64,000 bases of DNA from Octopus sinensis (taxonomy: Eukaryota): positions 59,830,001 to 59,894,000 of the forward strand of contig NC_043010.1 in NCBI RefSeq assembly GCF_006345805.1. Reading direction: 5' to 3'. Shown here piece by piece: positions 4,130-57,555 of the stretch (positions are counted from its first letter, which is position 1; every line of letters starts with the position of its first letter). The translations under genes were made by a program, and so were the position numbers. The notes beneath the pieces were generated by a model, which worked only from the letters and a program-made list of their open reading frames with translations, did not search any database and had not been told where the DNA came from.

Positions 4130-7100
4130 ATGAAGATGGTCTTAATAGCGATATGGATATTACAGTCTCTGCTTCACTGTTCTGTCTCTAAAGACATTGT
4201 TTACCATGTGAAAGAAGAGAACAGTCCTGTTATCAACATAGGAGACATTACTGCTGATTCCCAGTTAAAGGACACTGCATTATTATCGTTCAGTCAGTTG
4301 CAACAGAAGGGAACACAGCTGTTTAATGTGACCACCACTGGGAAGATATACACCACACAAACACTGGATGCTGAGTCTCTGTGTACTTTTGAGAAAGAAT
4401 GCTTTCACACAATTAAGGTAGCCGTTCATAAAGCAGGTAAATTTATAAAGATATTGAAAATTAAGGTGATTATAGAAGACATCAATGACCATCAACCAGA
4501 GTTTCCTGTGGAAGAAATTCAATTAACATTTGGAGAAGGAGATGGAATAGGTATGAAAAAGTCCATCCCCAATGCCATTGACAAAGATGTTGGATTACAG
4601 AACAGATTAGTGAATTACGAATTAAAGGGAAATAATCAACAGTTTTCTTTGTCCACATTCAAAAGAGCAGACGGAGTATCTTTTCTTGAAATTATATTAC
4701 AAGGGAAGTTAGACAGAGAGACGAAAGACAGCTATAATATAGAAGTGATTGCTAAGGATGGAGGAACTCCACCCAAACAGGGTGTCTTAAATGTGCACAT
4801 AACTGTGAAAGATGAAAATGATAACAGACCAATTTTCTCTGAGAAAACATACAATGTCTCTATACAAAATAACCATCAAAGAAATATACCAGTTGTTGTA
4901 ATGATGGCAGAAGACTCTGATATTGAAGAAAATGGTAAAGTTTCATATTATATCAGCCCAACAACGTCAACAGAATCAAAAGATAATTTTATTATAAATG
5001 AGAAAACTGGAGAAATATTCTTAAACAAAGAATCACAATTTGACAAAATGAAATCATTTAAATTATATATTGAAGCCAGAGATGGGGGCAACCCTCCTCT
5101 CAGTTCCATAGCAACGGTTATGGTAAATGTTATCAGCCAACACAACAATGCTCCAAATATTGATGTGAACTTTATTTCTACACAGAATCACAACACAGCT
5201 ACCATTCTGGAAGACATCAAAGTTGGTAGTTTCATTGCTTATGTGATGGTCACTGACAATGATGTTGGACACAATGGAGAGGTGAACTGTCATATCAAAG
5301 ACGACACATTCAAACTACAGTCAATGGGATCGAAGGAATATAAAATCGTTCTAAAGAAAGCAGTAGACAGAGAGACACAGGAACATTATCACTTTACTGT
5401 GTCGTGTGAAGATAAAGGATTACCTGCTCTGAAAACTGATAAAGATCTGTCAATCCAAGTGTTGGATGTGAATGATGTAGAACCACACTTTACGAAAGAC
5501 ACATTCAAGTTCCTTACCTATGAGAATGACAAAGCTAATTTCCCTATTGGCTTTATCAATGCTACAGACCCAGATATTGGTAAGGGAGGTGAATTGTCTT
5601 ATTCTCTGAGAAATAAACAGCAATATCGTCTGCCATTCCAGATTATCAACTCTGGCTTTATTTCAACAAACCAGTCTTTAGACAGAGAACACAGAGATTT
5701 CTATGAGTTTGAGGTTTTTGTGAAAGACAATGGAAGCCCATCTCTGAATAACACAGTGAATGTTGAAGTGGAAGTATTGGATAGAAATGATAATGCTCCA
5801 TATTTTACATTTCCTAGTGTTGACCCTTTCACTCTTAATGTCCACTATCATCCGCAAAGTAAGAACGACATCACAGTTCTGAAAGCATCTGATATAGACA
5901 GTCACATGAATGCTTTTCTCAGGTACGAAATCGTTTCAGGTAACGAGAGACAGTTATTTAAACTGGACTCGTTCACTGGTGTGTTATCTTACTCTCGCAC
6001 AGTTTACCAAAATGATGCCGGATCATATGAGCTTGAGTTTGTTGTGAAAGACAGTGGTACTCCAGTTCTGTCAGCAACAACTAGTGTGTCTTTGACACTG
6101 ACTGTTAGTAACAAGACGTCACCAATGTTCACAGCTGTGCACCTACCAAGTGATAACACCATAGATGCGACATTGTTGATTATCATTGTAGTAGCAGCTG
6201 TGATAGTATCTATAGCTATTGTGGTTTCTATAACCCTGTGTATTGTGAGATGTAACAATGTGAGAAATAGCTCATCTGAAAGAACAGCAGAAGAGAAACA
6301 GGCATACCAATGTCGCAATGAGATGAGACAGTTGATCTATCAAGGTAACAACAGTGTACCTGTGATGTCAGGTAATCGAGGAGAGATGTCAGACAGATAT
6401 GGTCATTCGAGGAGCCATTACTATCCTGAAGACTGGAAGACATCGACAATGAACAGGACACTTCAGAAATCTACACGGGTAAGTATTATTTGGAATATAT
6501 ATATTGTAAGTTTGTCTTCGTGTTGTAATAATTTGACTGCTATAAATATTACTTGGTGACATATATCTGATAAAAATTTCCTTTCAGAATTGTGTATCAT
6601 GTGATTTACTTGAAGACACTTTGTATAACCCAACACCATAGGCAGTAAATTGGTCAGAATGTGGCCACAGATATAGCTAGGCGGTAGATTGGTGCAGTGG
6701 GGAATATGTATCTCTTAAATGGCTTGTGTCAATTACTTTCACCTTTTTATGTTAAAGCATAACTTTCTTTATTTGTTAGTGGATGACATAAGCATCCTAG
6801 AATTGCCAGAATCAGTAGATGAAATACCTTGTTGTATTTATTCTGACTTCTTACCTTTTTATTACCTTTTTCTCTTGAAAAACGCCGCCGCCGTGGTGAT
6901 CTCATTCTCGCTCACAACATCATAAGCGGAAAGTGTAACCTCTTGAAAGAGCTGTTCTTCACTCCTGCTCCAGAGCATCGGCTGCGGGGTCATTCCGAAA
7001 AGCTCTATCTGCGACGATTTCATCTCAATCGAAGGAGAGGAGCTTTCTCCGTCCGGGTTGCGGATCCGTGGAACAAGCTGCCAGACGAGATGGTGAAGAT

Positions 7101-8993
7101 GCCGACGAACGCTTTGTTCAAAGCCTCCCTTGACCTCAAGTGGCCTGAACTCTTTACATGAACACCACCCTGTACTTAACTCCATGTCCCCCTACATGGC
7201 CTTGCTATTTGCTTTTGAGCCAAATTAACTAACTAACTAACTAACTATCCTTTGAATCCACCTACATTTTTGGTGACCACTGCAGTGTGGGACCAGAACC
7301 ATTTACGTGCCTTCACTAAATTATCGTTATTCGCTTCAAGCAATATATGGGCAGTCATAAACGTTTGTGCATTTATATTTGGTATTGTGGAGATGTTGAT
7401 TAGTCTATCTTTCAACAATACACCAAACTTATCATATAATAATAATAATGAAATTATTGTATGCAGTGCTGAGGTGCACCACAACATGTCAAAAGTGCAT
7501 ATAAAACACTTAACCCATGGAATTTAAACCTGTCAGTCTGGAGGCCACATGTTTGTTATTACATAATTATAAAGGGTGTATGTAGGCCACATGTTTGTTA
7601 TTACGTAATTAGAAAGAGTGTATGACATCCATTCGTGGGTTACATGGTCTTTGCGAGAAGGTGTTGAGACGAGCTGAAACACACTTTCGTTCTTCCACTG
7701 CATACTTCATTCATCCAGAACTTAATAACTATCTCCAGCACTTCAAACCACATCAATTCTAAGACTCTGTGGAAATATGTGAGGTGCTATGACATTATCT
7801 TCATTACTAACCAGCCTTAAAACTCACAATTGCTGGAAACGGAATGTGCATTGCTCTTGCAACATCAGAAAGTAACAACATAGTCATCTGCCTTTTCTCC
7901 TGTGAGACTTCTGACTTGGTGAAAGTTTTTTGCATCAGAGAGGAACCAAAGTACAATGTATTTGTGAGGGTTTTTAACCTCGTTAAATAACCTCTTGGCA
8001 CAGGTCAAATGATTTTCTTGGTTCTTTGGAGACAGGAATTAGCCTCTCCTCAGTACATAGGACAGGTGTCAAATGTGCTTGTGCACCTCAGTTCTGAGAG
8101 TCCATTCCAATGCTTGAATTTCCTTTACCATGGCCTCCTTTACTGGTTTTCTGGGATCATAATCAATAATGTTCTGAATCCATTGGATGAACTGCAGTGT
8201 CTTTCTAAAGTCTAAACATTTAGAAGAATTTAGTTCTCTTTAATACACTTCAAAAATTCTTGCTAGAGGCTTCCAATTTTACCCAAACTTTGAGTACGAA
8301 AGATCTTGCAGCATTTTACAAAGTTGGTAATATCTAAATCGCTGTGTTCCTCACTTATGTCAACAATAACTGCCTGATTTTTTTTATTTCATTTCTTTAG
8401 CATTTTATCTGACATAGTGTATCTGAAAAAATATACATCTTTTAATTGCTTCAAGTAATATACGGATAATTCAATATACTCAAAATACTTAATTACTCAA
8501 ATTTATTCTATAACAACATTACAGTATAACTGGTTGCTGTTTTATTTTACAGCAGAAATACAGTCAACCGATTGAGGTGACATCTTATGGAGACAACAGA
8601 CCATCTTCTAACTATCCCACTGACACATTGACCAGTCGTAAGAGCAGTGGACAGTGCTGGAGTGAGCGGTCAAGTAGACAGTATGAAGAAATACCAGCAA
8701 TGTCAGGTAGGACAATAATCCATTCTCATTTAATATTACACTAATTCATTACTAATTATTGTACTAATTATTGTTGTAGACTGAGATGTAATTAGTTCTG
8801 TCTGTGTGTCCCTAGAGTATTTCTGATGATGGTGATTTTTTCAGACATTGCTACATTAAAACAATCTTTTGCAGGGATCTATGGTAGCCAACAGGATACA
8901 CCAGTGAACCCCGAAAGACAACAGTATCAAGACAGATATGTGAAACCGCCAGAGAGACAGTTACCTTCAACACCAGATGTCATTACTAACTGA
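4130..8993 (+). CDS. Protocadherin copy 1 (6 EC, TM, cytoplasmic tail), about 873 aa
   Basis: join(4130-6478, 8553-8706, 8875-8993). Acceptor ttttcag|ATC at 4102; signal peptide MKMVLIAIWILQSLLHCSVS; EC1 has the protocadherin C-X5-C motif (CTFEKEC); DxNDxxP, LDRE and DxG motifs; TM LLIIIVVAAVIVSIAIVVSITLCIV; GT-AG introns in phases 0 and 1. Confidence 0.95.
6864..7246 (+). mobile_element. 5'-truncated CR1-group LINE 3' end in intron 2 of copy 1
   Basis: Encodes LFSLEKRRRRGDLI...LRGHSEKL...FSVRVADPWNKLP, typical of the CR1 ORF2 C-terminus. Ends in a (TAAC)n tail, is CpG-rich relative to its flanks, and is absent from the homologous intron position in copies 3 and 4. Confidence 0.85.
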
Positions 8994-9461
8994 CCACTGG
9001 TCATTTACTAAATATTAACCCTTTACAATAGTATTTTAAATAACCACCAACCCCACTCACTCACTCAAACTAGCATAAATATAATAACTTCTCTCATTAC
9101 CTCACAATTACAATATTATATTCCAACCTATGATAGAATATATGGACACTAACAGTGAAGTCAGCAACATTTCAAACCACACACACACACACACACACTT
9201 AATGTTTTATATACGCTCCTCTTTTCTCTAATATTCTCAGTTAGGTGATTTTTATATTTCTCAAATATCTCTAAAATTAAATTAGAATATATCTAAAATA
9301 TATTTCTCTATTTTTTACAACAGTGTTATTAAAATCTAAGACTGAGGAAATTATATTTAAAAATGATACCAAAATAAACCTGCCTGAAAATTAGAATATC
9401 CCTTCTCTATTTGTTCCTGCATCCTCCATTATAGGTTGGGTGTATATTTAGGTCAGACACA

Positions 9462-9579
9462 TCTTAACCAGAACTGTTCTATATTAACATCATTTGTTAG
9501 TAATATATTTACCAATATCAGTGATGTTTTGTTAATATGAGATCCGTATGAAACACTGAATATATATATATATCTATGC

Positions 9580-9621
<42 letters not shown>

Positions 9622-10006
9622 ATCAGACATGTTGGTGTTATATGGACTTCTTATGGCTGACTGTTAGTGGAGCTGATATTGTTTGTTCTCTTTCTTTCTT
9701 TCCCTCTTCTCTTTGAGGGAAACACAGCATCTTGTGTGTGTGAGGCTGGAGCAAGCATCACCCATCCCTCCTCTCTCTCTCTCTCTCTTACACGCATATG
9801 CACACACACACACTCACTAAACATCACACATCCACAAAGGAAGACTGAGAGGGAACTGCTGGTTCCCACTGACTCACCACCAACACTATTCCATCAACAT
9901 GAAGCCATTGTCACACCATAGCAGCAGTGACACAGACAACCATTAACAACAGAACATTGGGACCAAGTCACAGTTTATACAACAAAGGATTTTACACACA
10001 ATGAAG
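9462..10006 (+). promoter_or_regulatory. Promoter and leader exon of copy 2
   Basis: Near-identical to 1725-2267; donor ATGAAG|gtaagt after 10006. Confidence 0.75.
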
Positions 10007-10890
10007 GTAAGTCTATCAATGTTTATTTGGTATTATTAAGATATTTGACTGATGATTGTTGTAGAAACTTTCTTCAGCCATCTTTTACTATAGAATATAA
10101 CAAATAGAAATTATGTCAGTAGACATTTAAATATGGTCTTTGCCAGTTACACGCTTTCTCTTGATATTTATATGTTCATGATTGATATTTTGCTGTTAGG
10201 AAGTGTGAAATAATATTTAATTATGGTTATTTTCCAAGTGAAATATATTTAAATCCAGTCAGTTTGTTGTCTCTTATTTGCAGACATCTTCCTATTATTA
10301 TCAGTATTGATAATGTATAATATATAACCAGAAGATGTTCTTTATTGTGTGTATTTAAAAAAGAATCTGAGTGTTTCTTGTGAAGGATGTTTTGAGAGAG
10401 TCAAGTATCATTATTGTGTTTATATGTAAGAATGGGTTATATTAATATAAAATATTAAAGTGAAACTGGGAGAAGAGTTGACAAGATGGTGGTTTAGTGT
10501 CAACATAAATAATCAATATTGTGTTGTGGTATTGTTTAAGTCTTTCTGAATTTAATTTAAGATTTTATTGGTTTTAATCTGTTTGTTGTATTCATACTGA
10601 AACATTGTTCTATTTTGGTCTTGTTTAATGAATATCTTTTAATTAAATCTGGTATTATTTAGATTTGCAGTGTTGCTAAAAGAGCTTTTCTGTTATTAGA
10701 TATTTCTGTGAAATTTTATTCATTCAGGGAATTATATTTATTGTAAAATGTATTATTTTATTTAAATAATATTGTAATTGTATTTTTATTCTCTTTTTGT
10801 CATTTGTTTATGAAAGAGAATATATTGCATTGCATATATATAATGAATACAATCTTGCTAGTTTTTACGTCTCAATAGTTTTTATAAGAA

Positions 10891-12195: not shown

Positions 12196-15100
12196 ATGAA
12201 GATGGTCTTAATAGCGATTTGGATATTACAGTCTCTGCTTCACTGTTCTGTCTCTAAAGACATTGTTTACCATGTGAAAGAAGAGAACAGTCCTGTTATC
12301 AACATAGGAGACATTACTGCTGATTCCCAGTTAAAGGACACTGCATTATTATCGTTCAGTCAGTTGCAACAGAAGGGAACACAGCTGTTTAATGTGACCA
12401 ACACTGGGAAGATATACACCACACAAACACTGGATGCTGAGTCTCTGTGTACTTTTGAGAAAGAATGCTTTCACACAATTAAGGTAGCCGTTCATAAAGC
12501 AGGTAAATTTATAAAGATATTGAAAATTAAGGTGATTATAGAAGACATCAATGACCATCAACCAGAGTTTCCTGTCGAAGAAATTAAGATGGAATTTAGA
12601 GAAGCAGATGGGAAAGGGACAAAACAATCGATTCCCAATGCCATTGACAAAGATGTTGGATTACAGAATAGATTAGTGAATTACGAATTGAAGGGAAATA
12701 ACCAACAGTTTTCTTTGTCCACATTCAAAAGAGCAGACGGAGTATCATTTCTTGAAATTATATTACAAGGGAAGTTAGACAGAGAGACGAAAGACAGCTA
12801 TAATATAGAAGTGATTGCTAAGGATGGAGGAACTCCACCCAAACAGGGTGTCTTAAATGTGCACATAACTGTGGAAGATGAAAATGATAACAGACCAATT
12901 TTCTCTGAGAAAACATACAATGTCTCCATACAAAATAACCATCAAAGAAATAGACCAGTTGTTGTAATGATAGCAGAAGACTCTGATATTGGAGAAAATG
13001 GTAAAGTTTCATATTATATCAGCCCAACAACATCAACAGATTCAAAAGATAATTTTATTATAAATGAGAAAACTGGAGAAATATTCTTAGCCAAAGAATC
13101 GCAATTTGACAAAATGAAATCATTTAAATTATACATTGAAGCCAGAGATGGTGGTAACTCTCCTCTCAGTTCCATTGCAACTGTTATGGTAAATGTCATC
13201 AACCAGCAGAACAATCCTCCAAATATTGATGTGAACTTTATTTCTACACAGAATCACAACACAGCTACCATTCTGGAAGACATCAAAGTTGGTAGTTTCA
13301 TTGCTTATGTGATGGTCACTGACAATGATGTTGGACACAATGGAGAGGTGAACTGTCATATCAAAGACGACACATTCAAACTACAGTCAATGGGATCGAA
13401 GGAATATAAAATAGTTCTAAAGAAAGCAGTAGACAGAGAGACACAGGAACATTATCACTTTACTGTGTCGTGTGAAGATAAAGGATTACCTGCTCTGAAA
13501 ACTGATAAAGATCTGTCAATCCAAGTGTTGGATGTGAATGATGTAGAACCACACTTTACGAAAGACACATTCAAGTTCCTTACCTATGAGAATGACAAAG
13601 CTAATTTCCCTATTGGCTTTATCAATGCTACAGACCCAGATATTGGTAAGGGAGGTGAATTGTCTTATTCTCTGAGAAATAAACAGCAATATCGTCTGCC
13701 ATTCCAGATTATCAACTCTGGCTTTATTTCAACAAACCAGTCTTTAGACAGAGAACACAGAGATTTCTATGAGTTTGAGGTTTTTGTGAAAGACAATGGA
13801 AGCCCATCTCTGAATAACACAGTGAATGTTGAAGTGGAAGTATTGGATAGAAATGATAATGCTCCATATTTTACATTTCCTAGTGTTGACCCTTTCACTC
13901 TTAATGTCCACTATCATCCGCAAAGTAAGAACGACATCACAGTTCTGAAAGCATCTGATATAGACAGTCACATGAATGCTTTTCTCAGGTACGAAATCGT
14001 TTCAGGTAACGAGAGACAGTTATTTAAACTGGATTCGTTCACTGGTGTGTTATCTTACTCTCGCACAGTTTACCAAAATGATGCCGGATCATATGAGCTT
14101 GAGTTTGTTGTGAAAGACAGTGGTACTCCAGTTCTGTCGGCAACAACTAGTGTGTCTTTGACCCTGACTGTTAGTAACAAGACGTCACCAATGTTCACAG
14201 CTGTGCACCTACCAAGTGATAACACAATAGATGCGACATTGTTGATTATCATTGTAGTAGCAGCTGTGATAGTATCTATAGCTATTGTGGTTTCTATAAC
14301 CCTGTGTATTGTGAGATGTAACAATGTGAGAAATAGCTCATCTGAAAGAACAGCAGAAGAGAAACAGGCATACCAATGTCGCAATGAGATGAGACAGTTG
14401 ATCTATCAAGGTAACAACAGTGTACCTGTGATGTCAGGTAATCAAGGAGAGATGTCAGACAGATACGGTCATTCGAGGAGCCATTACTATCCAGATGACT
14501 GGAAGATGTCTACAATCAACAGAACACTCCAGAAATCCACAAAGGTAAGCTCTATTTCCAGTAAACATCTTCAAGTAAATAATCTCCAAATTAAATGCCT
14601 AATTTGTTTCATCTCTGGATAAATGTAATGTTGTATGAATTACAACTGCTAAATCATGTCATTTTTCAGAATTGTTATGAAAGAAGATCATTTCGTAGAA
14701 AAGATTGTCGATTAAAAGTTATAGTACACAATATGCAACGCATCGTAAACTACTAACTCTTTCTGAAACCATATTCTGATAGTGGAAGACAGTTGTTAAC
14801 CATTTGAATCTTGATAAAGGTCATTCTGCTAGATAAATGTAGACATTCATCTAATGTTCCATACATTGTATAGTTTGTGAACAAATTGAATGCTGATTTG
14901 CTTACAGGGTACACTTTGTAGGAAAGTGGGAAAAAAATCACACAGTAACGTCTGTATATATCCTGATTGAAAGATTCCCTCTTGAATTGAACAAGTTGTA
15001 AAGTTTTACCATTGATGAATATCAATAACAGTATTTCAGCCCTTCATTTTCTGTTGGTGTGGGTTCTGTCTGAATACCAAGAGCTCTTCCAAGAACTTGA

Positions 15101-16236
15101 GAAATTTAAGTTGACACATATTCTCAAACTGGATGACAGATCTGACTTCATGTTAGCTGCAATACTTGCTCATGTGTTAAATATTCCAAGCAACAACTGA
15201 CATTGACCACATAGTGTAGTTGGAAATCATATCTCTAATCTCGGGTAATAACAGCTGGTTCACCATACAAGTAACTGTGGACAGAGAATGAAAATGAATT
15301 GCTGTAAATGAATGTAAGATCAGCTAATAGATTCACTGTAATAATATTTAATAAGATATGAAAGATGCTATGTAGATACATGGCACTTTTAAGAACAGTC
15401 TAATATAGCATCATTTCAACTGCAGGTCACTGGCAATGTTGTTTCCTATTACAAAACATCCAAAGACTTCTGAAAGTATCTCACCAATAATTTTCTCTTT
15501 ATAAATTTCTATTAATATTTGATCAATATTTTATGAAAACACCTTCGTATATCCCTTCTCATGGTGTATGTGTGACGTTATTCGCATTCATTGTGGATTG
15601 TGGCAAAATGAGTTTCTGAATTGTTTCATAAACAATTGTTTAATAAAGAAACATGTAAAATATATTTAGATGATATAGTGATACTATTACCTATGTGACA
15701 GTTAAATCTGTTTTTTTTAGAATTTTGTACTAAGCATATTTTAGATTACAGAGGCACATCATTTTATTATAACTGGATACAATAATATTTTACAGCAGAA
15801 ATACAGTCAACCGATTGAGGTGACATCTTATGGAGACAACAGACCATCTTCTCACTATCCCACTGACACACTGACCAGTCGTAAGAGCAGTGGACAGTGC
15901 TGGAGTGAGCGGTCAAGTAGACAGTATGAAGAAATACCAGCAATGTCAGGTAGGATATCAATCCATTCTCATTTAATATTACAGTAATTCATTACTAATT
16001 ATCGTACTAATTATTGTTGTAGACTGAGATGTAATTAGTTCTGTCTGTGTGTCCCTAGAGTATTTCTGATGATGGTGATTGTTTCAGACATTGCTACATT
16101 AAAACAATGTTTTGCAGGGATCTATGGTAGCCAACAGGATACACCAGTGAACCCCGAAAGGCAACAGTATCAAGACAGATATGTGAAACCTCCAGAGAGA
16201 CAGTTACCTTCAACACCAGATGTCATTACTAACTGA
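12196..16236 (+). CDS. Protocadherin copy 2, about 873 aa
   Basis: join(12196-14544, 15796-15949, 16118-16236); acceptor at 12168; donor ACAAAG|gtaagc; same domain layout as copy 1. Confidence 0.95.
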
Positions 16237-16397: not shown

Positions 16398-16439
<42 letters not shown>

Positions 16440-18137: not shown

Positions 18138-18176
<39 letters not shown>

Positions 18177-19069: not shown

Positions 19070-22000
19070 ATGAAGATGGTCTTAATAGCGATATGGATAT
19101 TACAGTCTCTGCTTCACTGTTCTGTCTCTAAAGACATTGTTTACCATGTGAAAGAAGAGAACAGTCCTGTTATCAACATAGGAGACATTACTGCTGATTC
19201 CCAGTTAAAGGACACTGCATTATTATCGTTCAGTCAGTTGCAACAGAAGGGAACACAGCTGTTTAATGTGACCACCACTGGGAAGATATACACCACACAA
19301 ACACTGGATGCTGAGTCTCTGTGTACTTTTGAGAAAGAATGCTTTCACACAATTAAGGTAGCAGTTCATAAAGCAGGTAAATTTATAAAGATATTGAAAA
19401 TTAAGGTGATTATAGAAGACATCAATGACCATCAACCAGAGTTTCCTGTCGAAGAAATTAAATTAACATTTGAGGAAGGTGATGGAGTAGGTATGAAAAA
19501 GTCCATCCCCAATGCCATTGACAAAGATGTTGGATTACAGAACAGATTAGTGAATTACGAATTGAAGGGAAATAACCAACAGTTTTCTTTGTCCACATTT
19601 CAGATAGCTGATAGTTTGCTTTCATTAGAAATCGTTTTAGAAGGAAAGTTAGATAGGGAGACGAAAGACAGCTATAATATAGAAGTGATTGCTAAGGATG
19701 GAGGAAGTCCACCCAAACAGGGTGTCTTAAATGTGCACATAACTGTGAAAGATGAAAATGATAACAGACCAATTTTCTCTGATAAAACATACAATGTCTC
19801 TATACAAAATAACCATCAAAGGAATAGACCAGTTGTTGTAATGTTGGCAGAAGACGCTGATATTGGAGAAAATGGTAAAGTTTCATATTATATCAGTTCC
19901 TTAACATCTAAAGACTCAATGAACAACTTTAGGATAGAGCAGCAATCAGGGGAAATATTCCAGTCTAAACATTCTAATTTAGAAAAGAAGAAATCATTTA
20001 AATTATACATTGAAGCCAGAGATGGGGGCAACCCTCCTCTCAGTTCCATAGCAACTGTTATGGTAAATGTCATCAACCAGCAGAACAATCCTCCAAATAT
20101 TGATGTGAACTTTATTTCTACACAGAATCACAACACAGCTACTATTCTGGAAGACATCAAAGTTGGTAGTTTCATTGCTTATGTGATGGTCACTGACAAC
20201 GATGTTGGACACAATGGACAGGTGAACTGTCATATCAAAGATGACACATTCAAACTACAGTCAATGGGATCGAAGGAATATAAAATAGTTCTAAAGAAAG
20301 CAGTAGACAGAGAGACACAGGAACATTATCACTTTACTGTGTCGTGTGAAGATAAAGGATTACCTGCTCTGAAAATTGATAAAGATCTGTCAATCCAAGT
20401 GTTGGATGTGAATGATGTAGAGCCACACTTTACGAAAGACACATTCAAGTTCCTTACCTATGAGAATGACAAAGCTAATTTCCCTATTGGCTTTATCAAT
20501 GCTACAGACCCAGATATTGGTAAGGGAGGTGAATTGTCTTATTCTCTGAGAAATAAACAGCAATATCGTCTGCCATTCCAGATTATCAACTCTGGCTTTA
20601 TTTCAACAAACCAGTCTTTAGACAGAGAACACAGAGATTTCTATGAGTTTGAGGTTTTTGTGAAAGACAATGGAAGCCCATCTCTGAATAACACAGTGAA
20701 TGTTGAAGTGGAAGTATTGGATAGAAATGATAATGCTCCATATTTTACATTTCCTAGTGTTGACCATTTCACTCTTAATGTCCACTATCATCCGCAAAGT
20801 AAGAACGACATCACAGTTCTGAAAGCATCTGATATAGACAGTCACATGAATGCTTTTCTCAGGTACGAAATCGTTTCAGGTAACGAGAGACAGTTATTTA
20901 AACTGGATTCGTTCACTGGTGTGTTATCTTACTCTCGCACAGTTTACCAAAATGATGCCGGATCATATGAGCTTGAGTTTGTTGTGAAAGACAGTGGTAC
21001 TCCAGTTCTGTCAGCAACAACTAGTGTGTCTTTGACACTGACTGTTAGTAACAAGACGTCACCAATGTTCACAGCTGTGCACCTACCAAGTGATAACACA
21101 ATAGATGCGACATTGTTGATTATCATTGTAGTAGCAGCTGTGATAGTATCTATTGCTATTGTGGTTTCTATAACCCTGTGTATTGTGAGATGTAACAATG
21201 TGAGAAATAGCTCATCTGAAAGAACAGCAGAAGAGAAACAGGCATACCAATGTCGCAATGAGATGAGACAGTTGATCTATCAAGGTAACAACAGTGTACC
21301 TGTGATGTCAGGTAATCGAGGAGAGATGTCAGACAGATACGGTCATTCGAGGAGCCATTACTATCCAGATGACTGGAAGATGTCTACAATGAACAGAACA
21401 CTCCAGAAATCTACACGGGTAAGTATTATTTGGAATATATATATATTGTAAGTTTGTCTTCGTGTTGTAATAATTTGACTGCTATAAATATTACTTGGTG
21501 ACATATATCTGATAAAAATTTCCTTTCAGAATTGTGTATCATGTGATTAGTATGTGATTTACTTGAAGACACTTTGTATAAATAATCACCATAGGCAGTA
21601 AATTGGTCAGATTGTGGCCCTAGATATATAGCTTGGCAGTAGATTGGTGCAGTGGGGAATATGTATCTCTTAAATGACTTGTGTCAATTACTTTCACCTC
21701 TTTATGTTAAAGCATAAATTTCCTTATTCGTTAGTGGATGACATAAGCATCCTAGTATTGCCAGAATCAGTAGATGAAATACCCTGTTGTATCTGTTCTC
21801 AATTCTTACCTTTTTATTCCAAATTTTAGTAAGGACTACTCTACATTTTATCAGTGTTTGAGGGCCTGAATATGCTTATAGGTACTAGAGCTTTCTGTCT
21901 AAAATATATCCACATTCTGATATTTATATATGCAACTGTTACCTATTGTAGAATGTGTGGTATTATTCCTATGTTATATATATATATATATATGCACACA

Positions 22001-23670
22001 TATATATATAATGCAGCACCAGTAAATATTTCATAAATATTCAATTTTCTTTCGGGGACAATCAGAAAGCTGCACTTAGAATATTCTTAAAAGTTATTTG
22101 CCAATATTTACATCTAAAGTGAAATTGTCCTTTAGATTGTTCTGACAAGTGTGTCATGAAATGTGATTGTACCAAGATTTTACAATCAATGAATATTGAT
22201 TTCTGCTATAAGTTTGAAATGGTGGAAATGATTTTTGAAATTTGAGTAATGTTATGAAGTGTTGTTGGTTGCCCTGAGGATACTGAGACTCATCGAGGTG
22301 TGAGAATAAAGAACAAGAAAAAGGGCGTCATGTAATGTGTAATACTCAAGGAGACCCATGCATCATGGCAAAAGTCACTTCTGGATGCATTAAATGTGCA
22401 TATATTACATATATGTGTACAAATGGGCCCATCCAAATTCCTCATGTCACCGCTTCATGTCTCCCACTGTAATCCTCTCATCATTTTATGATTTTTCCTT
22501 CTACCATTCAGAGTGTTCTCTGCACCCATACGTAACAATGATAGTTCTTTCTCCTAGTATCCTTGACCCCTCACAAACCACCAGATTACATACGATCTCT
22601 GCTCTCACCTCTCCTGCAACACCCTTCAACTTAACCCAATCTTTACAGATGTTGGATTCCTTCCCTTACCGTCTTCCATTTTACCCATCTCTTTGAAACC
22701 CCCACCTCCTCATGCTCCTAATTTCTCTGTCCCCACCCACTTCCACTCCTCTCATACCCTGAACTACCTCCTGGACGCCTCATTACCTATCACTACGTTA
22801 ATTACCAAGTAGCTCCTTTACAATGAGAACCTTCTCTGTCCCACCTTTTCTCATACCTTAACCCTTATCTCCTGCCATAAAGGCCTCGTCCTTGGGTTTC
22901 CTAGTCTTGTAAGCCAAATGCTGAACTTGCTCGTACCAGTGGCACTAAAAACACACCCTGTGCATGGTGTAAAATGGTTGGTGTTAGGAAATGCATCCAG
23001 CGATAGAAAAGCTGAGGGCTGGAATACGATGCAGTCTTTTGCCCCATCAGATCCTGTTAAACCATTCAGTCCATGGCAGTCTTGGACATGGACATTAATT
23101 GATGATTATTATGGTTATTATGATGCCCTGCATCTTTCTATAGATGCAACATTATAACGAGTTACTCATTAACATTGTCAATCATGAATGATTTCTTTAA
23201 GTGTTTCTGGTTGCTGTTGTATTTTACAGCAGAAATACAGTCAACCGATCGAGGTGACATCTTATGGAGACAACAGACCATCCTCTAACTATCCCACTGA
23301 TACATTGACCAGTCGTAAGAGTAGTGGACAGTGCTGGAGTGAGCGGTCAAGTAGACAGTATGAAGAAATACCAGCAATGTCAGGTAGGATAACAATCCAT
23401 TCTCATTTAATATTACAGTAATTCATTACTAATTATTGTACTAATTATTGTTGTAGACTGAGATGTAATTAGTTCTGTCTGTGTGTCCGTAGAGTATTTC
23501 TGATGATGGTGATTGTTTCAGACATTGCTACATTAAAACAATCTTTTGCAGGGATCTATGGTAGCCAACAGGATACACCAGGGAACCCCGAAAGACAACA
23601 GTATCAAGACAGATATGTGAAACCTCCAGAGAGACAGTTACCTTCAACACCAGATGTCATTACTAACTGA
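19070..23670 (+). CDS. Protocadherin copy 3, about 873 aa
   Basis: join(19070-21418, 23230-23383, 23552-23670); acceptor at 19042; reading frame intact. Confidence 0.95.
22400..23110 (+). repeat. Degenerate pyrimidine-rich interspersed repeat with an RTE-like 3' end, shared with copy 4 (about 31720-32410)
   Basis: CT-rich body ending ggttggtgttaggaaatgcatccagc...ggacatggacattaa-(gat)n. Related minus-strand pieces lie at about 34690-35300, 35660-36400 and 48540-49030. Confidence 0.55.
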
Positions 23671-26310: not shown

Positions 26311-28300
26311 ATCATCATCATCGTTTAACATCTGCTTTCCATGCTAGCATGGGTTGGACGATTTGACTGAGGACTCGCAAACCAGATGGCTGCACCAGGC
26401 TCCAGTCTGATCTGGCAGAGTTTCTACAGCTTGATGCCCTTCCTAATGCCAATCTCTCTGAGAATGTAGTGGGTGCTTTTATGTGCCACTGGCACGAGGG
26501 TCAGTCAGGCGGTACTGGCAATGGCCACGGTCAAATGGTGTTTTTTACGTACCACTTGCACAGCAAGCAGTCCAGCAACACTGGCAACGACCTCGCTCAA
26601 ATGTTTTTTCACGTGTGCCAGTAAGGCGTCGCTGGTAATGATCATGCTCGAATAGTGCGTTTTATGTGCCACTGGCATGGAAGCCAGTTAGCTGTTCTGG
26701 CAACAAATACACTCAGATGGTGCTCTCAGCGCTCCACTAGCATGGATGCCAGTTATGCGGTGCTGTCATAGATTTCGATTTCACTTGCCTCAACAGGTCT
26801 TCGCAAGCACAGTTTAGTGTCCAATAAAGGAAAGGTTTGCATAATTGGGCTGGTTACACCCCTGGCATAGGCCACAAAGTTTAGGTCTCACTTGGCTTGC
26901 CGGATCTTCTGAAGCACAGCATATTTCCAGTGGTCACTAGTCATTGCCTCAGTGAGGCCTAACGTTCAAAGGTCGTGCTTCACCACTTCATCCCAGGTCT
27001 TCCTGGGTGTACCTCTTCCACAAGTTCCCTGAACGCTAGGGTGTGGCACTTTTTCTCACAGCTATCCTCATCCATTCTCACCACATCTGATGCTTCTTAG
27101 GTCCAACTTTTCTCTCAAGATACTTACACTCTGTCGAGTATGTACACTGACATTACACATCCATCGGAGCATACTGGCTTCATTCCTTGCGAGCTTATGC
27201 ATGTCCTCAGCAGTGATGGCTCATGTTTCACTGCCAAATAGCATGGCTGTTTGTACACAAGCGTCATACAGTCTACGTTTTACTCTGAGCGAGAAGCCTT
27301 TTGTCACCAGCAGAGTTAATAGCTCTCCGAACTTTGCCCAGGCTATTCTTTATTCTAGCAGCAACATTTTCAGCACACCCTCCCCCACTACTGACTTTGT
27401 CACCTAGGTAATGGAAGCTATCAACTACTTGTAATTTTTCTCCCTGGATTGTGGCAGAAGTTGTTCTCTGCACATTTTCAGTGTTTATTGCTCCTGAGTA
27501 TCTGCCACATACAAAAACTATCTTCCCAGTTAGCCTTCCTTTGATATTGCTGCACCTCTTATGTGTCCATAGCTTACACTGGGTACATCTTATGGAGTTT
27601 CTACCTACGCCTTTTCTACAGATCGAGCAGGGCCATCTACCTCAAAGGATTTGTGGTTTACCTGCCTTCCTACTTATTAAGACTTTGGTTTTAGCTAGGT
27701 AGACTCTAAGGACCTTCGATTCTAATCCTTGCTTCCACACCTGAAACTTCTCCTCGAGTTCTGATAGTGACTCAGCAATTAGAGCAAGGTTGTCAGCATA
27801 GAGGAGCTCCCAGGGGCATCCTGCTGACTTCAATTCGCCTGTTATTGCCTGGAAGACTATGATAAATAGGAGGGGGTTGAGGACTGAACCCTGGTGGACT
27901 CCTACCTCTACCTGGAATTTTTCTCTGTACTTGTTTCCAACCCTCACTTTACTGACACTGTTCCTGTACATGGCTTGCGCAGCTCTCACTGACCATTCAT
28001 CTATCCCTAGTTTCCTCATTGACCACCAGATAAGGGATCGTGGGACCCCGTCAAAGGCTTTCTCCATGTCAACGAAAGCCAGGTACAGAGGATTATCTTT
28101 GGCTAGGTATTTCTCCTGCAGCTGTCTTACTAGAAATATGGCATCAGTGGTGCTTTTCCCTGGCACGAACCCAAACTGCATCTCATCTCAACTGACTCTC
28201 TCCCTAATTAGTTGGGCTATGACTCTCTCCGTGACCTTCATTACCTGATCTAACAACTTGCTACCTCTGTCATTATTTGTATCTAAAGTGTCACCTTTAC
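26311..28300 (-). mobile_element. 5'-truncated RTE-clade LINE (reverse transcriptase remnant) in intron 1 of copy 4
   Basis: Minus-strand ORF 27642-28181: QFGFVPGKSTTDAIF...AFVDMEKAFD...GVHQGSVLNPLLF...LLYADNL (RT motifs, YADD mutated to YADN). A downstream fragment contains FHYLG; (GAT)n tail at 26311. Confidence 0.92.
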
Positions 28301-28594: not shown

Positions 28595-31500
28595 ATGAAG
28601 ATGGTCTTAATAGCGATATGGATATTACAGTCTCTGCTTCACTGTTCTGTCTCTAAAGACATTGTTTACCATGTGAAAGAAGAGAACAGTCCTGTTATCA
28701 ACATAGGAGACATTACTGCTGATTCCCAGTTAAAGGACACTGCATTATTATCGTTCAGTCAGTTGCAACAGAAGGGAACACAGCTGTTTAATGTGACCAC
28801 CACTGGGAAGATATACACCACACAAACACTGGATGCTGAGTCTCTGTGTACTTTTGAGAAAGAATGCTTTCACACAATTAAGGTAGCCGTTCATAAAGCA
28901 GGTAAATTTATAAAGATATTGAAAATTAAGGTGATTATAGAAGACATCAATGACCATCAACCAGAGTTTCCTGTCGAAGAAATTAAACTGGAGTTTAGAG
29001 AAGGAGATGGAAAAGGTAGGAAAAAGTCCATCCCCAATGCCATTGACAAAGATGTTGGATTGCAGAACAGATTAGTGAATTATGAATTGAAGGGAAATAA
29101 CCAACAGTTTTCATTGTCCACATTCCAAAGAGCTGATGGAGTATCATCTCTGGAAATTATATTACAAGGGAAGTTAGACAGAGAGACGAAAGACAGCTAT
29201 AATATAGAAGTGATTGCTAAGGATGGAGGAACTCCACCCAAACAGGGTGTCTTAAATGTGCACATAACTGTGAAAGATGAAAATGATAACAGACCAATTT
29301 TCTCTGAGAAAACATACAATGTCTCTATACAAAGTAACCATCAAAGAAATATGCCGGTTATTGTCATGTTGGCAAAAGACTCTGATATTGGAGAGAATGG
29401 TAAAGTTTTTTATCATTTCAGTCCAACAACATCAACAAATGCAAAACATCATTTCTTAATAGATTCAGATTCGGGAGAACTTTACTTGAACAAACATTCT
29501 GAGTTACAGAAGAAAAAATCATTTAAATTGTATATTGAAGCCATAGATGGGGGCAACCCTCCTCTCAGTTCCATAGCAACGGTTATGGTAAATGTCATCA
29601 ACCAGCAGAACAATCCTCCAAATATTGATGTGAACTTTATTTCTACACAGAATCACAACACAGCTACCATTCTGGAAGACATCAAAGTTGGTAGTTTCAT
29701 TGCTTATGTGATGGTCACTGACAATGATGTTGGACACAATGGACAGGTGAACTGTCATATCAAAGATAACACATTCAAACTACAGTCAATGGGATCGAAG
29801 GAATATAAAATAGTTCTAAAGAAAGCAGTAGACAGAGAGACACAGGAACATTATCACTTTACTGTGTCGTGTGAAGATAAAGGATTACCTGCTCTGAAAA
29901 CTGATAAAGATCTGTCAATCCAAGTGTTGGATGTGAATGATGTAGAACCACACTTTACGAAAGACACATTCAAGTTCCTTACCTATGAGAATGACAAAGC
30001 TAATTTCCCTATTGGCTTTATCAATGCTACAGACCCAGATATTGGTAAGGGAGGTGAATTGTCTTATTCTCTGAGGAATAAACAGCAATATCGTCTGCCA
30101 TTCCAGATTATCAACTCTGGCTTTATTTCAACAAACCAGTCTTTAGACAGAGAACACAGAGATTTCTATGAGTTTGAGGTTTTTGTGAAAGACAATGGAA
30201 GCCCATCTCTGAATAACACAGTGAATGTTGAAGTGGAAGTATTGGATAGAAATGATAATGCTCCATATTTTACATTTCCTAGCGTTGACCCTTTCACTCT
30301 TAATGTCCACTATCATCCGCAAAGTAAGAACGACATCACAGTTCTGAAAGCATCTGATATAGACAGTCACATGAATGCTTTTCTCAGGTATGAAATCGTT
30401 TCAGGTAACGAGAGACAGTTATTCAAACTGGATTCGTTCACTGGTGTGTTATCTTACTCTCGCACAGTTTACCAAAATGATGCCGGATCATATGAGCTTG
30501 AGTTTGTTGTGAAAGACAGTGGTACTCCAGTTCTGTCAGCAACAACTAGTGTGTCTTTGACACTGACTGTTAGTAACAAGACGTCACCAATGTTCACAGC
30601 TGTGCACCTACCAAGTGATAACACAATAGATGCGACATTGTTGATTATCATTGTAGTAGCAGCTGTGATAGTATCTATAGCCATTGTGGTTTCTATAACC
30701 CTGTGTATTGTGAGATGTAACAACGTGAGAAATAGCTCATCTGAAAGAACAGCAGAAGAGAAACAGGCATACCAATGTCGCAATGAGATGAGACAGTTGA
30801 TCTATCAAGGTAACAACAGTGTACCTGTGATGTCAGGTAATCGAGGAGAGATGTCAGACAGATATGGTCATTCGAGGCACCATTACTATCCCGAAGACTG
30901 GAAGATGTCTACTATGAACAGAACACTCCAGAAATCTACACGTGTAAGTATTATTTGGAATATATATATTGTAAGTTTGTCTTCATGTTGTAATAATTTC
31001 ACTGCTGTAAATATTACTTGGTGACATATATCTGATAAAAATTTCCTTTTAGAATTTTGTATCATGTGGTTAGTATGTGATTTACTTGAAGACACTTTGT
31101 ATAACCCAACACCATAGGCAGTAAATTGGTCAGAATGTGGCCATAGATATATAGCTTGGCAGTAGATTGGTGCAGTGGGGAATATGTATCTCTTAAATGA
31201 CTTGTGTTAATTACTTTCACCTCTTTATGTTAAAGCATGACTTACTTTATTTGTTAGTGGATGATATAAGCATCCTAGAATTGCTAGAATCAGCAGATAG
31301 AATACCCTGTTGTATCTATTCTCATTTCTTAACTTTTTATTCCAAATTTTAGTGAGGACTACTTTGCCTTCTATCTTTGTGGGATTGACAAAAGATGTAC
31401 AATTATGAGCATTGAACTGAGAGAAGCATTTGTGCATCATTTGTGGTTCCTTGCTATATTTGTTCTAACTATTTACCCTCTCACTTCATCTATGGGCTGC

Positions 31501-32971
31501 TTGGATAGAAGACTTAATCTGTTGCTCTGTTTAGCACCAGCAACTGGTCGTTGGGTGCTTTGAGCAGTGAAGGCCACTATTTGGCTCAGGTCTCTAATTT
31601 GAGGATAATCAACCCCGTTCTTCTCTCCTTCTTTTGTATCAGTCTTAAATCATAAATCCGCTCCTTTGATATTCTTAAGAGTATTTTGCAAATATTTACA
31701 TCTAAAACTTGTGTATATATTACATATATGCACACGAAGTGGCACTTCCAAATTCCACATATCACCCCCTTCGTCTCTCCCACTAATCCTCTCCTAATAC
31801 TGTTACATATTTTTCTTTCTACCATTCAGAGTGTTCTCTGCACCCATACGTAAGGATTATAGTTCTTTCTCCTATTATCCTTGTCCCCTCACAAACCAGA
31901 TTACATACGATCTCAGCTCTCACCTCTCCTGCAACACCCTTCAACTTAACCCAATCTTTACAGATGTTGGATTCCTTCCCTTAACCGTCTCCCATTTTAC
32001 CTATCTCTTTCAAACCCCCACCTCCTCATGCTCCTAATTTCTCTGTCCCCACCCACTTACACTCATCTCATACCCTGAACTACCTCCTGGACGCCTCATT
32101 ACCTACCAATGATTCCTTCCCATTCTCATCACTATGTTAATTACCAAGCAGCTCCTTTACAATGCCCCACGTTCTCTCATACCTTAACCCTTATCTCCTG
32201 CCATAAAGGCCTCGTCCTTGGGTTTGCCAATCTCATAAGACAAATACAGAACTTGCTCGTACCAATGGCACTAAAAACACACCCAGTGTATGATGTAAAA
32301 TGGTTGGTGTTAGGAAATGCATCCAGCGATAGAAAAGCTGAGGGCTGGAATACGATGCAGTCTTTTGCCCCATCAGTCCCTGGCAATGTGGAACATGGAC
32401 ATTAATTGATGGTTATTATGGTGCCCTGTAGCTTTCTATAGATGCAACAACATTACAATGAGTTATTCATTAACCTTGTCAATCATGAATGATTTCTTTA
32501 AGTGTTTCTGGTTGCTATTATATTTTACAGCAGAAATACAGTCAACCGATTGAGGTGACATCTTATGGAGACAACAGACCATCCTCTAACTATCCCACTG
32601 ACACACTGACCAGTCGTAAGAGCAGTGGACAGTGCTGGAGTGAGCGGTCAAGTAGACAGTATGAAGAAATACCAGCAATGTCAGGTAAGACAACAATCCA
32701 TTCTCATTTAATATTACAGTAATTCATTACTAATTATTGTACTAATTATTGCTGTAGACTGAGATGTAATTAGTTCTGTCTGTGTGTCCGTAGAGTATTT
32801 CTGATGATGGTGATTGTTTCAGACATTGCTACATTAAAACAATGTTTTGCAGGGATCTATGGTAGCCAACAGGATACACCAGTGAACCCCGAAAGACAAC
32901 AGTATCAAGACAGATATGTGAAACCTCCAGAGAGACAGTTACCTTCAACACCAGATGTCATTACTAACTGA
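28595..32971 (+). CDS. Protocadherin copy 4, about 873 aa
   Basis: join(28595-30943, 32531-32684, 32853-32971); acceptor at 28567; reading frame intact. Confidence 0.95.
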
Positions 32972-39160: not shown

Positions 39161-39631
39161 ATGATGAGGTGGTTGGCTGTGTTTTTTTTCACTCAGTTAC
39201 ATCACAGCACTCCAATATCTATCCAAATCAGTTAAAAAGACAAATACTTCATATTTCATATAAAACATTCTTACAAACAACAAGTATCGCTCCTTGGAAT
39301 TCTGTGACATTCTGCTTAAAATATTGCATTTTAAAGTTTAATTAATGAAGCAAAGATGGAAATAAGAAATCTCATCTTCCTGTAAATTATACAACGATAA
39401 TGAACTCAATACTGCTTCGTTACACATTTTATAAATATAATAATTGGGTATTATTGTGATTAATGAAGGTAAAGCAGGAAAGAATGAAAACATTTAATAT
39501 AATAAAAAGATGTTTATTTTGCTGTGGTTAATAGAATAAATATTATAAATCTGTTATTTGTTTCTGTAATGTGACTGGCAGTTGTGTACCTTTATATTTT
39601 CAGATCAATTGACTGGTATTAAACTCAACAA

Positions 39632-42600
39632 ATGAAGATGGTCTTAATAGCGATATGGATATTACAGTCTCTGCTTCACTGTTCTGTCTCTAAAGACATT
39701 GTTTACCATGTGAAAGAAGAGAACAGTCCTGTTATCAACATAGGAGACATTACTGCTGATTCCCAGTTAAAGGACACTGCATTATTATCGTTCAGTCAGT
39801 TGCAACAGAAGGGAACACAGCTGTTTAATGTGACCACCACTGGGAAGATATACACCACACAAACACTGGATGCTGAGTCTCTGTGTACTTTTGAGAAAGA
39901 ATGCTTTCACACAATTAAGGTAGCCGTTCATAAAGCAGGTAAATTTATAAAGATATTGAAAATTAAGGTGATTATAGAAGACATCAATGACCATCAACCA
40001 GAGTTTCCTGTGGAACAAATTAAGATGGAATTTGATGAAAGTCATGGAAAAGGTACAAAACAATCGATTCCCAATGCCATTGACAAAGATGTTGGATTAC
40101 AGAACAGATTAGTGAATTACGAATTGAAGGGAAATAACCAACAGTTTTCTTTGTCCACATTTCAGATAGCAGATAGTTTGCTGTCATTAGAAATCGTTTT
40201 AGAAGAAAAGTTAGATAGGGAGACGAAAGACAGATATGATATAGAAGTGATTGCTAAGGATGGAAGCAATCCACCCAAACAGGGTGTCTTAAATGTGCAC
40301 ATAACTGTGAAAGATGAAAACGATAACAGACCAATTTTCTCTGATAAAACATACAATGTCTCTATACAAAGTAACCATCAAAGGAATATACCGGTTATTG
40401 TCATGTTGGCAAAAGACTCTGATATTGGAGAAAATGGTAAAGTTTCATATTATATCAGTTCCTTAACATCTAAAGACTCAATGAACAACTTTAGGATAGA
40501 GCAGCAATCAGGGGAAATATTCCAGTCTAAACATTCTAATTTAGAAAAGAAGAAATCATTTAAATTATATATTGAAGCCAGAGATGGGGGCAGCCCTCCT
40601 CTCAGTTCCATTGCAACTGTTATGGTAAATGTCATCAACCAGCAGAACAATCCCCCAAATATTGATGTGAACTTTATTTCTACACAGAATCACAACACAG
40701 CTACCATTCTGGAAGACATCAAAGTTGGTAGTTTCATTGCTTATGTGATGGTCACTGACAATGATGTTGGACACAATGGACAGGTGAACTGTCATATCAA
40801 AGATGACACATTCAAACTACAGTCAATGGGATCGAAGGAATATAAAATAGTTCTAAAGAAAGCAGTAGACAGAGAGACACAGGAACATTATCACTTTACT
40901 GTGTCGTGTGAAGATAAAGGATTACCTGCTCTGAAACTGATAAAGATCTGTCAATCCAAGTGTTAGATGTGAATGATGTAGAACCACACTTTACGAAAGA
41001 CACATTCAAGTTCCTTACCTATGAGAATGACAAAGCTAATTTCCCTATTGGCTTTATCAATGCTACAGACCCAGATATTGGTAAGGGAGGTGAATTGTCT
41101 TATTCTCTGAGAAATAAACAGCAATATCGTCTGCCATTCCAGATTATCAACTCTGGCTTTATTTCAACAAACCAGTCTTTAGACAGAGAACACAGAGATT
41201 TCTATGAGTTTGAGGTTTTGTGAAAGACAATGGAAGCCCATCTCTGAATAACACAGTGAATGTTGAAGTGGAAGTATTGGATAGAAATGATAATACTCCA
41301 TATTTTACATTTCCTAGTGTTGACCCTTTCACTCTTAATGTCCACTATCATCCGCAAAGTAAGAACGACATCACAGTTCTGAAAGCATCTGATATAGACA
41401 GTCACATGAATGCTTTTCTCAGGTACGAAATCGTTTCAGGTAACGAGAGACAGTTATTTAAACTGGATTCGTTCACTGGTGTGTTATCTTACTCTCGCAC
41501 AGTTTACCAAAATGATGCCGGATCATATGAGCTTGAGTTTGTTGTGAAAGACAGTGGTACTCCAGTTCTGTCAGCAACAACTAGTGTGTCTTTGACACTG
41601 ACTGTTAGTAACAAGACGTCACCAATGTTCACAGCTGTGCACCTACCAAGTGATAACACAATAGATGCGACATTGTTGATTATCATTGTAGTAGCAGCTG
41701 TGATAGTATCTATAGCTATTGTGGTTTCTATAACCCTGTGTATTGTGAGATGTAACAATGTGAGAAATAGCTCATCTGAAAGAACAGCAGAAGAGAAACA
41801 GGCATACCAATGTCGCAATGAGATGAGACAGTTGATCTATCAAGGTAACAACAGTGTACCTGTGATGTCAGACAGATATGGTCATTCGAGGAGTCATTAC
41901 TATCCCGAAGACTGGAAGACGTCAACAATGAACAGAACACTCCAGAAGTCAACAAGGGTAAGTATTATTTTTAGAAAACTATGAGTGTATTTGACAAAAG
42001 TAAAATTAAGTACATGTCAATGGTCTATTAGAATGAGTAAATGATTGATGAGGATGGCTTGAAATATTTGTTACCAGCTCTTTATATTCTGAGTTCAAAT
42101 CTAGCCGTACCCTACTTGGGTTGTAGATCTGAATGTGTCACCAAGTTTAACATCAACTCTTTCCAGTTTAGAACAATTAGTGGAGGTGATCACTTCCTTT
42201 ATCCTCTTACTAATTGATAAGGAATCAATAAAAATCTAGGGTCAGTATATTTAAATATACCCTAAATTAGAGATTATAGCCATGTGTCTATAGTAGAAAT
42301 GAATATGATTTAACCCTTGTAAATATTTGATAATTAATTATTGCTATATGATAAGTAGGGCCTGGAGCTTGAAATGAGAAATCTCCCTGGAATTTAGCTG
42401 GATGATGTCAAGAAGAATGGCACTGCCATCATTTCTCTTCAAGTTACTCTTCACATCACTGCTGACATCTGACATAAATATTGCTGTCACATATGAACCA
42501 TTTCAACTTTATTCCTCTGTTTTCTCCGCAAGATTGCCTATATGAAGGGGGCCAATCTATATGAGCCCTATCAGATTTGAGGCATTCTGTTGTTTTTTTT

Positions 42601-56635: not shown

Positions 56636-57555
<920 letters not shown>

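Follow-up and report, generated by a model that had tools for sequence, protein, structure and literature searches.

Results

A head-to-tail array of complete protocadherin genes

The window analyzed here, 64,000 nucleotides of Octopus sinensis DNA (NC_043010.1, positions 59,830,001 to 59,894,000 of the forward strand), carries five protocadherin genes. Locating array genes in the window and in the 400 kb upstream of it, we found that these five copies are the end of a head-to-tail protocadherin array of ~41 genes on one strand; the original prediction, made from the letters of the window, had treated the five as a family, which is real, although the window shows just its last 5 of ~41 members. 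Comparison of these genes points to a gene-conversion mosaic, in which extracellular cadherin (EC) domains 4 to 6 are nearly identical between copies, EC2 and EC3 are diverse, and one short EC2 segment has probably moved between genes separately from the rest.

The large exons of copies 1 to 5, all on the plus strand, run from 4130 to 6478 (copy 1, where a splice donor GT comes next), 12196 to 14544, 19070 to 21418, 28595 to 30943 and 39632 to 41956, and each large open reading frame encodes a signal peptide, EC1-EC6, a transmembrane (TM) segment and the beginning of the tail. Downstream exons, located by tblastn with approximate ends, follow on the same strand at ~8550-8708 and ~8865-8990 (copy 1), ~15793-15951 and ~16108-16233 (copy 2), ~23227-23385 and ~23542-23667 (copy 3), ~32528-32686 and ~32843-32968 (copy 4), and ~43324-43482 and ~43639-43764 (copy 5); those of the preceding gene of the same subfamily lie at 824-1266 (plus strand), its large exon being just upstream of the window. 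Such exons were detected behind 40/41 array genes, which indicates that the array members are complete tandem genes, as had been proposed. The layout does not match vertebrate-style variable exons spliced to shared constant exons; instead, each gene appears to have tail exons of its own.

The large exon is intact in 33/41 array genes and frameshifted in 8/41. The five window copies fall in a seven-gene subfamily, a larger subfamily upstream holds 24 intact genes, and divergent singletons account for four. Pfam matches (Cadherin_2 at 23-100 and five Cadherin stretches) identify the products as protocadherins; among named proteins, Octopus sinensis 'protocadherin beta-like' entries come closest, and the best sequence and fold matches are the non-clustered delta-protocadherins (Pcdh8.1, 10, 17, 18 and 19; 6vg1, E = 9e-91). 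The array is very likely one of the published coleoid arrays of head-to-tail multi-exon genes (octopus chromosome 14, squid chromosome 15). Towards the end of the window (63135-63206), a lone stretch resembling the final protocadherin exon (24 residues, 71% identity) is perhaps a decayed gene, and a further partial protocadherin match lies ~9 kb beyond the window end.

Homogenised outer domains and diverse EC2-EC3

Across the 33 intact genes, synonymous divergence (dS) was 0.003 in EC5, 0.045 in EC4 and 0.051 in EC6, and 0.87 and 0.76 in EC2 and EC3, respectively. Summarized by range, it lay at 0.003-0.05 from EC4 to the membrane, bearing out the proposed near-identity of the scaffold even at silent sites, and at 0.25-0.9 in EC2-EC3. 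In copy 1 this homogenised portion, comprising EC4-EC6, the stalk and the TM segment, spans 5162-6247 (plus strand), with 98.9-99.9% amino-acid identity across the intact genes, while EC1 is uniform within subfamilies only. Between the five window copies, pairwise nucleotide differences numbered 0-3 of 375 in the signal peptide and EC1 and 0-2 of 315 in EC5. The ratio of nonsynonymous to synonymous divergence (dN/dS) was 0.2-0.3 in EC2-EC3, implying that the variable patches described below are old and unconverted, not visibly fast-evolving.

We compared the array with Argonauta hians, using 23 of 26 proteins of the same array type (16 genes in the patch correlations below); this replicate consists of protein sequences only, each representing a 90% cluster. 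Argonauta EC4-6 were 97.5-98% alike within the species and 94-95% alike to those of the Octopus sinensis genome, and this greater likeness within than between species is a mark of concerted evolution. Outer domains homogenised by conversion together with diverse EC2-EC3 were thus seen in the array, in Argonauta and also in a second array (below). Within otherwise flat sequence just past the EC2-EC3 linker motif, residue 233 (4826-4828) is hypervariable, with a heterozygosity of 0.82 in both Octopus sinensis and Argonauta (nonsynonymous diversity, pN, 0.53; synonymous diversity, pS, 0.17).

Variable patches in the five window copies

In copy 1, patch A (4508-4567, residues 127-146) covers the EC2 A strand, A-B loop and B strand; patch B (4658-4708) the EC2 D-E loop and E strand; patch C (4841-4927) EC3 A-B; patch D (4943-5050) the EC3 C strand, C-D loop, D, E and E-F loop; and a further, F-G patch (5066-5143) the EC3 F strand, F-G loop and G strand, all on the plus strand. 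Patches A, B and D lie at 12574-12633, 12724-12774 and 13009-13116 in copy 2, at 19448-19507, 19598-19648 and 19883-19990 in copy 3, at 28973-29032, 29123-29173 and 29408-29515 in copy 4, and at 40010-40069, 40160-40210 and 40445-40552 in copy 5. Pairwise nucleotide differences amounted to 6-20 of 66 in A, 1-24 of 65 in B, 4-11 of 90 in C, 0-44 of 125 in D, and 4-11 over 5056-5161 in the further patch. The original prediction had four patches, and placed them correctly, but C is weak (in the larger subfamily it is homogenised, with a mean p-distance of 0.06) and the fifth, at 5056-5161, was overlooked.

The proposed grouping of the copies by patch was reproduced. Patch A joins copies 1 and 3 against 2 and 5 over part of its length, with copy 4 intermediate; B sets copies 1, 2 and 4 against 3 and 5; D separates 1 and 2 from 3 and 5 and both from 4; and C joins 4 and 5 on ~six sites. 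Shared silent changes are also real, at 4564/4567 in copies 2 and 5 and at 4714/4717 in copies 3 and 5. B and D group the five copies almost identically and are therefore not independent. Copies 1 and 2 differ at 0 and 2 residues in B and D and at 8 in A, and copies 3 and 5 at 1 and 0 residues in B and D and at 9 in A (19 and 20 differences, respectively, over EC1-EC4), such that the window consists of copy 4 and of two pairs, the members of a pair having one core type and differing at A. No combination recurs, as predicted: EC2-EC3 is distinct in 33/33 intact genes, and in the larger subfamily 24/24 genes differ from one another in their classes at seven patches.

Transfer of DNA between paralogues

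A permutation test of the PHI (pairwise homoplasy index) type over EC2-EC3 yielded p = 0.0005 for the five copies (88 informative sites), and likewise for seven copies, and p = 0.001 for 24 genes (274 sites). Giving segments separate trees improved the fit beyond all 40 codon permutations in 9/9 segment pairs, with an excess log-likelihood of 146-297 for pairs including A and of 47-90 for the others, and the patches therefore do not share one congruent tree. Approximately unbiased (AU) tests also rejected 20/20 cross-trees, but these favour each segment's own tree, so that we relied on the permutation test instead. Identical runs at p < 0.01 were present in 46/276 gene pairs, of which 10 survived global correction; copies 3 and 5 have an identical 151-base run in common.

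Silent distance in A correlated with amino-acid distance in A (r = 0.73) and not in D (-0.02), as expected of transfer rather than convergence. Silent distance in D correlated with amino-acid distance in D (0.41) and not in A (-0.01), and that in B weakly with B's own (0.11). A copying model was optimal at approximately one switch per 25 bases (~29 switch points per gene over 774 bases), with switches occurring within patches and least often in D, which argues against discrete modules. The proposed transfer of DNA between paralogues on a constant scaffold is therefore well supported, and we have little doubt that the array is a real gene-conversion mosaic.

A probable mobile segment and a co-inherited core

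At the nucleotide level (24 genes), Mantel correlations were 0.00 for A-B and -0.02 for A-D1, and 0.42 and 0.52 for B-D1 and B-D2; B, D and the F-G patch inter-correlate at 0.33-0.52 across the homogenised middle, and A is uncorrelated with them. The same pattern occurred in Argonauta, where A correlated with all other patches at 0.05-0.16 and B with D1 at 0.41, and where the B-D pairing of copies 3 and 5 recurs in one protein (P0003). Among recent duplicates, recognized by their flanking DNA (4/276 pairs), distances were 0.05-0.07 in the core and 0.15-0.23, three- to fourfold greater, in A. Similarly, 12 of 17 distinct O. vulgaris and O. bimaculoides genes had an Octopus sinensis partner at least 91% identical in D, and in 9 of these 12 A was at most 86% identical; the cleanest cases are three singletons, in which A is 77% identical, one segment 80% and all the others 93-100%. 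We consider it probable that the array combines one mobile cassette, patch A, with a co-inherited core of B, D and the F-G patch, and patch A likely gives fresh duplicates a putative new recognition identity.

Two unplaced contigs (C10512 and C12667, genes L041-L046) align collinearly with two stretches of the array; divergence in the flanks is mostly 0-4%. Of their six genes, two match the chromosome copy and four differ in EC2-EC3, and one sits where the chromosome carries a recent duplicate pair. These contigs are likely the second haplotype, segmental duplicates being the alternative.

A second array with the same variable segment

A neighbouring protocadherin array (L055-L074, G000:C14 59.098-59.334 Mb), for which 20 of 23 matches were examined, also has A as its most variable segment, with 19/20 alleles distinct. 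Patch A was 58% identical and the other EC2-EC3 segments 81-98% in 18 genes, two outliers being dropped (57% and 77-93% with the outliers included). Moreover, the EC1 F-G loop is dimorphic in this array and coupled to the type of the EC4 A loop, ~750 bases away (8/9 versus 0/11, Fisher p = 7e-5; Mantel 0.56), and unrelated to the adjacent A (Mantel -0.04). The EC4 start of one gene (L071) resembles that of the first array, which suggests conversion between arrays.

Position of the variable residues in the predicted fold

Strand boundaries were taken from a monomer model (pLDDT 86.7, pTM 0.59) used for this purpose only; its root-mean-square deviation from solved EC1-4 fragments is 6-13 Å, and it gives no reliable information on the bend. 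A prediction of the EC1-EC4 homodimer (score 0.06, with the alignment unused and no contacts output) was not counted either way. According to PMC5115871, shared interface motifs comprise the EC1 F-G loop, the A-B loop, B strand and D-E loop of EC2, the linker, the C-D and F-G loops of EC3, and the A loop of EC4. Variation in the array was enriched in the published EC2-EC3 motifs (p = 0.012; shift null, 0.005). Two couplings coincide with vertebrate dimer contacts described in section 7 of PMC5001838: that of B with D, matching EC2 D-E loop/EC3 C-D loop, and that of the second array, matching EC1 F-G loop/EC4 A loop. In vertebrate dimers the surface corresponding to A contacts the EC3 C strand and F-G/G, and of the interface residues that distinguish mouse beta6 from beta8, 2/5 (117 and 125) map into A within ~2 residues, the accuracy of mapping by alignment offsets. 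A self-contact of A at the two-fold axis was dropped as a candidate, since PMC7082078 centres the EC3 F-G loops there.

Canonical three-calcium motifs occur at the EC1-2 and EC2-3 linkers and not at EC3-4. The latter linker (5135-5155 in copy 1, with equivalents in all copies) reads NQHNN or NQQNN in 65/116 aligned cephalopod homologues, and no DRE is present among the seven commonest EC3 motifs. To judge from these residues, the EC3-EC4 hinge may be flexible or bent.

Assembly quality

Copy 5 carries two 1-base homopolymer losses, producing frameshifts near 40933 and 41215, and an in-frame 21-base deletion near 41863. An indel in the same T run in two other genes points to sequencing error as the source of the frameshift, and all listed short-read contigs carry the missing bases; the other copies swamp this region, and error is likely. 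Two genes, starting at G000:C14 59521303 and 59812317, are strewn with indels, as is usual where long-read sequence is left uncorrected, making gene counts and pseudogene calls in the array unreliable.

In each of four runs from four studies (run X1 being possibly the source sample itself), contigs cover EC4-EC6 in stretches 135-443 bases long that deviate at 0-6 letters. The D allele of copies 3 and 5 was found in one run under another organism label (124 bases, 1 difference). Such contigs do not link one patch to the next where sequence is shared, and copy number is not to be read from their depth. Patch A is never identical between the 33 intact genes, with nearest neighbours 1-17 differences of 60 apart, and the same layout occurs in three other octopod protein sets, which makes an assembly chimera unlikely. 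Chimeric assembly had been named as a possible flaw of the mosaics, and these data speak against it.

Discussion

The best explanation of these results, to which we give a probability of roughly 55%, is that conversion has erased the differences between copies outside EC2-EC3, that selection keeps EC2-EC3 distinct, and that patch A is a moving cassette. Germline gene conversion would start and end in the conserved motifs flanking A; the short cassette that it carries from one gene to another would endow a new duplicate with a binding identity of its own. A whole-gene duplicate would initially be redundant, and would be retained once A, and later other surface patches, differ. Where two patches meet in an antiparallel EC1-EC4 trans dimer, they would have to stay matched and would therefore travel together. 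A freely exchanged segment should become uniform, as has happened to EC1, EC2 F-G, EC3 A-B and EC4-6, yet A is decoupled and stays as diverse as the core, which favours selection for difference without proving it; judging from sequence comparison, we lean slightly towards trans recognition as what this selection maintains. We hold only tentatively, as a possibility on the doubtful side, a bolder version in which the array would be an independently evolved, vertebrate-like neuronal barcode, a 20-codon EC2 cassette from an old pool shared with Argonauta passing by conversion into new duplicates, from subfamily to subfamily and from one haplotype to another, with each swap creating a new strict self-binding specificity and individuals differing in their repertoires.

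Several results weigh against selection for homophilic recognition carried by a mobile patch A. No segment and no class of residues reaches a pN/pS ratio of 1 (0.49 in second-array A; 0.2-0.3 in EC2 and EC3). Patch A is not wholly free of the core, as a residual A-B link (amino-acid Mantel 0.25, p = 0.003) and covariation between the B strand and C-D (p = 0.005) show. Restricted to silent sites, the PHI-type test was non-significant (p = 0.067 for seven copies with 26 sites, and 0.14), as were recombination tests in smaller windows (p = 0.06-0.47). The original prediction had named as decisive whether the variable residues lie at the trans interface, and the answer is mixed: by motif, enrichment holds in one of three sets, being non-significant in Argonauta (p = 0.20) and the second array (0.77), and by strand face it was absent from the vertebrate trans face in both sets examined (p = 0.12 and 0.65). 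A large share of the variation (EC2 B-C/C-D, EC3 E-F) falls beyond the published interface, A-strand and F-G-loop residues show no covariation (p = 0.36), and the expected partner surface of A is 92% constant in the second array, which is hard to reconcile with strict homophilic matching by A alone. An EC3-EC4 linker lacking canonical calcium motifs also means that the geometry may differ from that of vertebrates. Finally, the genes are not statistically independent, the EC1-EC4 coupling was noticed post hoc, and neutral processes also suffice to link any two distant patches that resist conversion.

The last point belongs to the alternative that survives best, which we nevertheless regard as unlikely: a neutral patchwork in which, conversion requiring homology, weakly constrained segments drifted into resistance to it, and A moves more merely for being a short island between two conserved motifs, no role in recognition being required. 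The low pN/pS, the rise of dS with dN in all patches, and the failure of interface enrichment in two of three sets are what it expects, and variation in EC3 E-F coincides with calcium-motif loss. In a neutral conversion model, based on true times and not on saturating distances, the linkage pattern arose by itself in 417/1200 runs. However, A was both decoupled and as old as the core in only 22 of these 417 (6/60 runs in the best cell). This model replaced a first grid (0/360 runs matching), out of whose reach the observed B-D linkage lay. Moreover, allele types of A are common with Argonauta (Fst-like 0.04, against 0.82 for EC4-6, a likeness that may include convergence), as are those of B (0.07) and B-C/C-D (0.10); A is diverse in the second array despite a flat B patch there; and the same region is spared in vertebrate clusters (PMC4978886).

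We think it quite improbable that the diversity was selected for another function, such as a heterophilic partner, pathogen binding to the exposed EC2 edge, or self-recognition of tissues or individuals. The expected partner surface of A does not vary in step with it, and the putative second-haplotype contigs differ in EC2-EC3 at 4/6 loci, like a polymorphic recognition locus; on the other hand, the two couplings match homodimer contacts, and coleoid protocadherins as a group are reported to be neural (PMC9068888, PMC9795677).

Slightly less probable again is the original idea of four discrete modules that reassort freely, each combination being a new homophilic barcode. The incongruence of all tested segment pairs (9/9) and the distinct class combination of every gene would fit it, but A alone moves with much freedom: correlations among B, D and the F-G patch persist in two genomes, with the B-D pairing recurring in Argonauta, C is minor and homogenised in 24 genes, and switch points are spread through the patches.

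Lastly, an assembly or polishing artefact, with identity and mosaics produced by collapsed or chimeric reads, is made very improbable by the octopod protein sets, the non-identical A patches and the contigs of four runs, even though the frameshifts in 8/41 genes (often at homopolymers), the two indel-rich genes and the 151-base run of copies 3 and 5 testify to imperfect base quality or might be taken for collapse.

Returning to conversion with selection for distinct EC2-EC3, its components have counterparts elsewhere. Segmental gene conversion in a recognition family, with short tracts moving among paralogues, is familiar from the major histocompatibility complex (MHC). As in trypanosome mosaic variant surface glycoproteins (VSG; PMC8787164), short tracts move old variants among paralogues on a common scaffold; the proteins of both systems are unrelated to protocadherins, and a pseudogene donor pool, an expression site or a somatic step is not shown in octopus. 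A close parallel is the vertebrate clustered protocadherins (alpha, beta and gamma), which likewise encode six EC domains and the TM segment in one large exon, lie in tandem order, and whose solved EC1-4 fragments are matched by the octopus fold. In these clusters conversion homogenises EC5-EC6 and spares EC2-EC3 (PMC4978886, citing Noonan 2004), the identities among mouse alpha protocadherins being 96% in EC1, 69% in EC2, 59% in EC3 and 98% in EC5 (PMC4978886). By contrast, the octopus expansion is independent and has its own tail exons (PMC9068888), its homogenisation extends across EC4, its EC3-EC4 linker lacks canonical calcium motifs, and its EC2-EC3, described in vertebrates as escaping conversion, is a patchwork with one mobile segment. 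Delta-protocadherins use the same antiparallel EC1-EC4 dimer (PMC5115871, PMC7082078), but are single dispersed genes with canonical calcium linkers and without concerted evolution.

Homogenisation sparing EC2-EC3 is therefore known from vertebrate clusters, whereas its convergent octopod form with one mobile cassette was not found in the literature searched, nor was a domain-level or binding study of cephalopod protocadherins (subscription papers and supplements lay mostly outside the search). Conversion has been suggested as the cause of coleoid protocadherin similarity (PMC6339937, PMC9068888), and the accessible text of PMC9068888 makes no functional claim for these proteins as identity codes. 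That an independent expansion spares the same two domains argues that the same pressure acted twice. Whole-gene distances dated the coleoid burst to 8-14 million years ago (PMC9795677); here EC4-6 look young, and EC2-EC3 allele types are common with Argonauta, such that a date or tree built from whole genes of such arrays pools very recent segments with very ancient ones. Copies 1/2 and 3/5 are natural minimal pairs, from which it can be predicted which swaps would change, keep or break binding.

Other features of the window

Upstream of copy 4, a fragment matching RVT_1 on the minus strand (27642-28187, E = 6e-20) is likely the remnant of a long interspersed nuclear element (LINE). Beyond the last gene, the window contains an imperfect palindrome of 223 bases at 47395-47617 and long TA microsatellites at 56797-58454.

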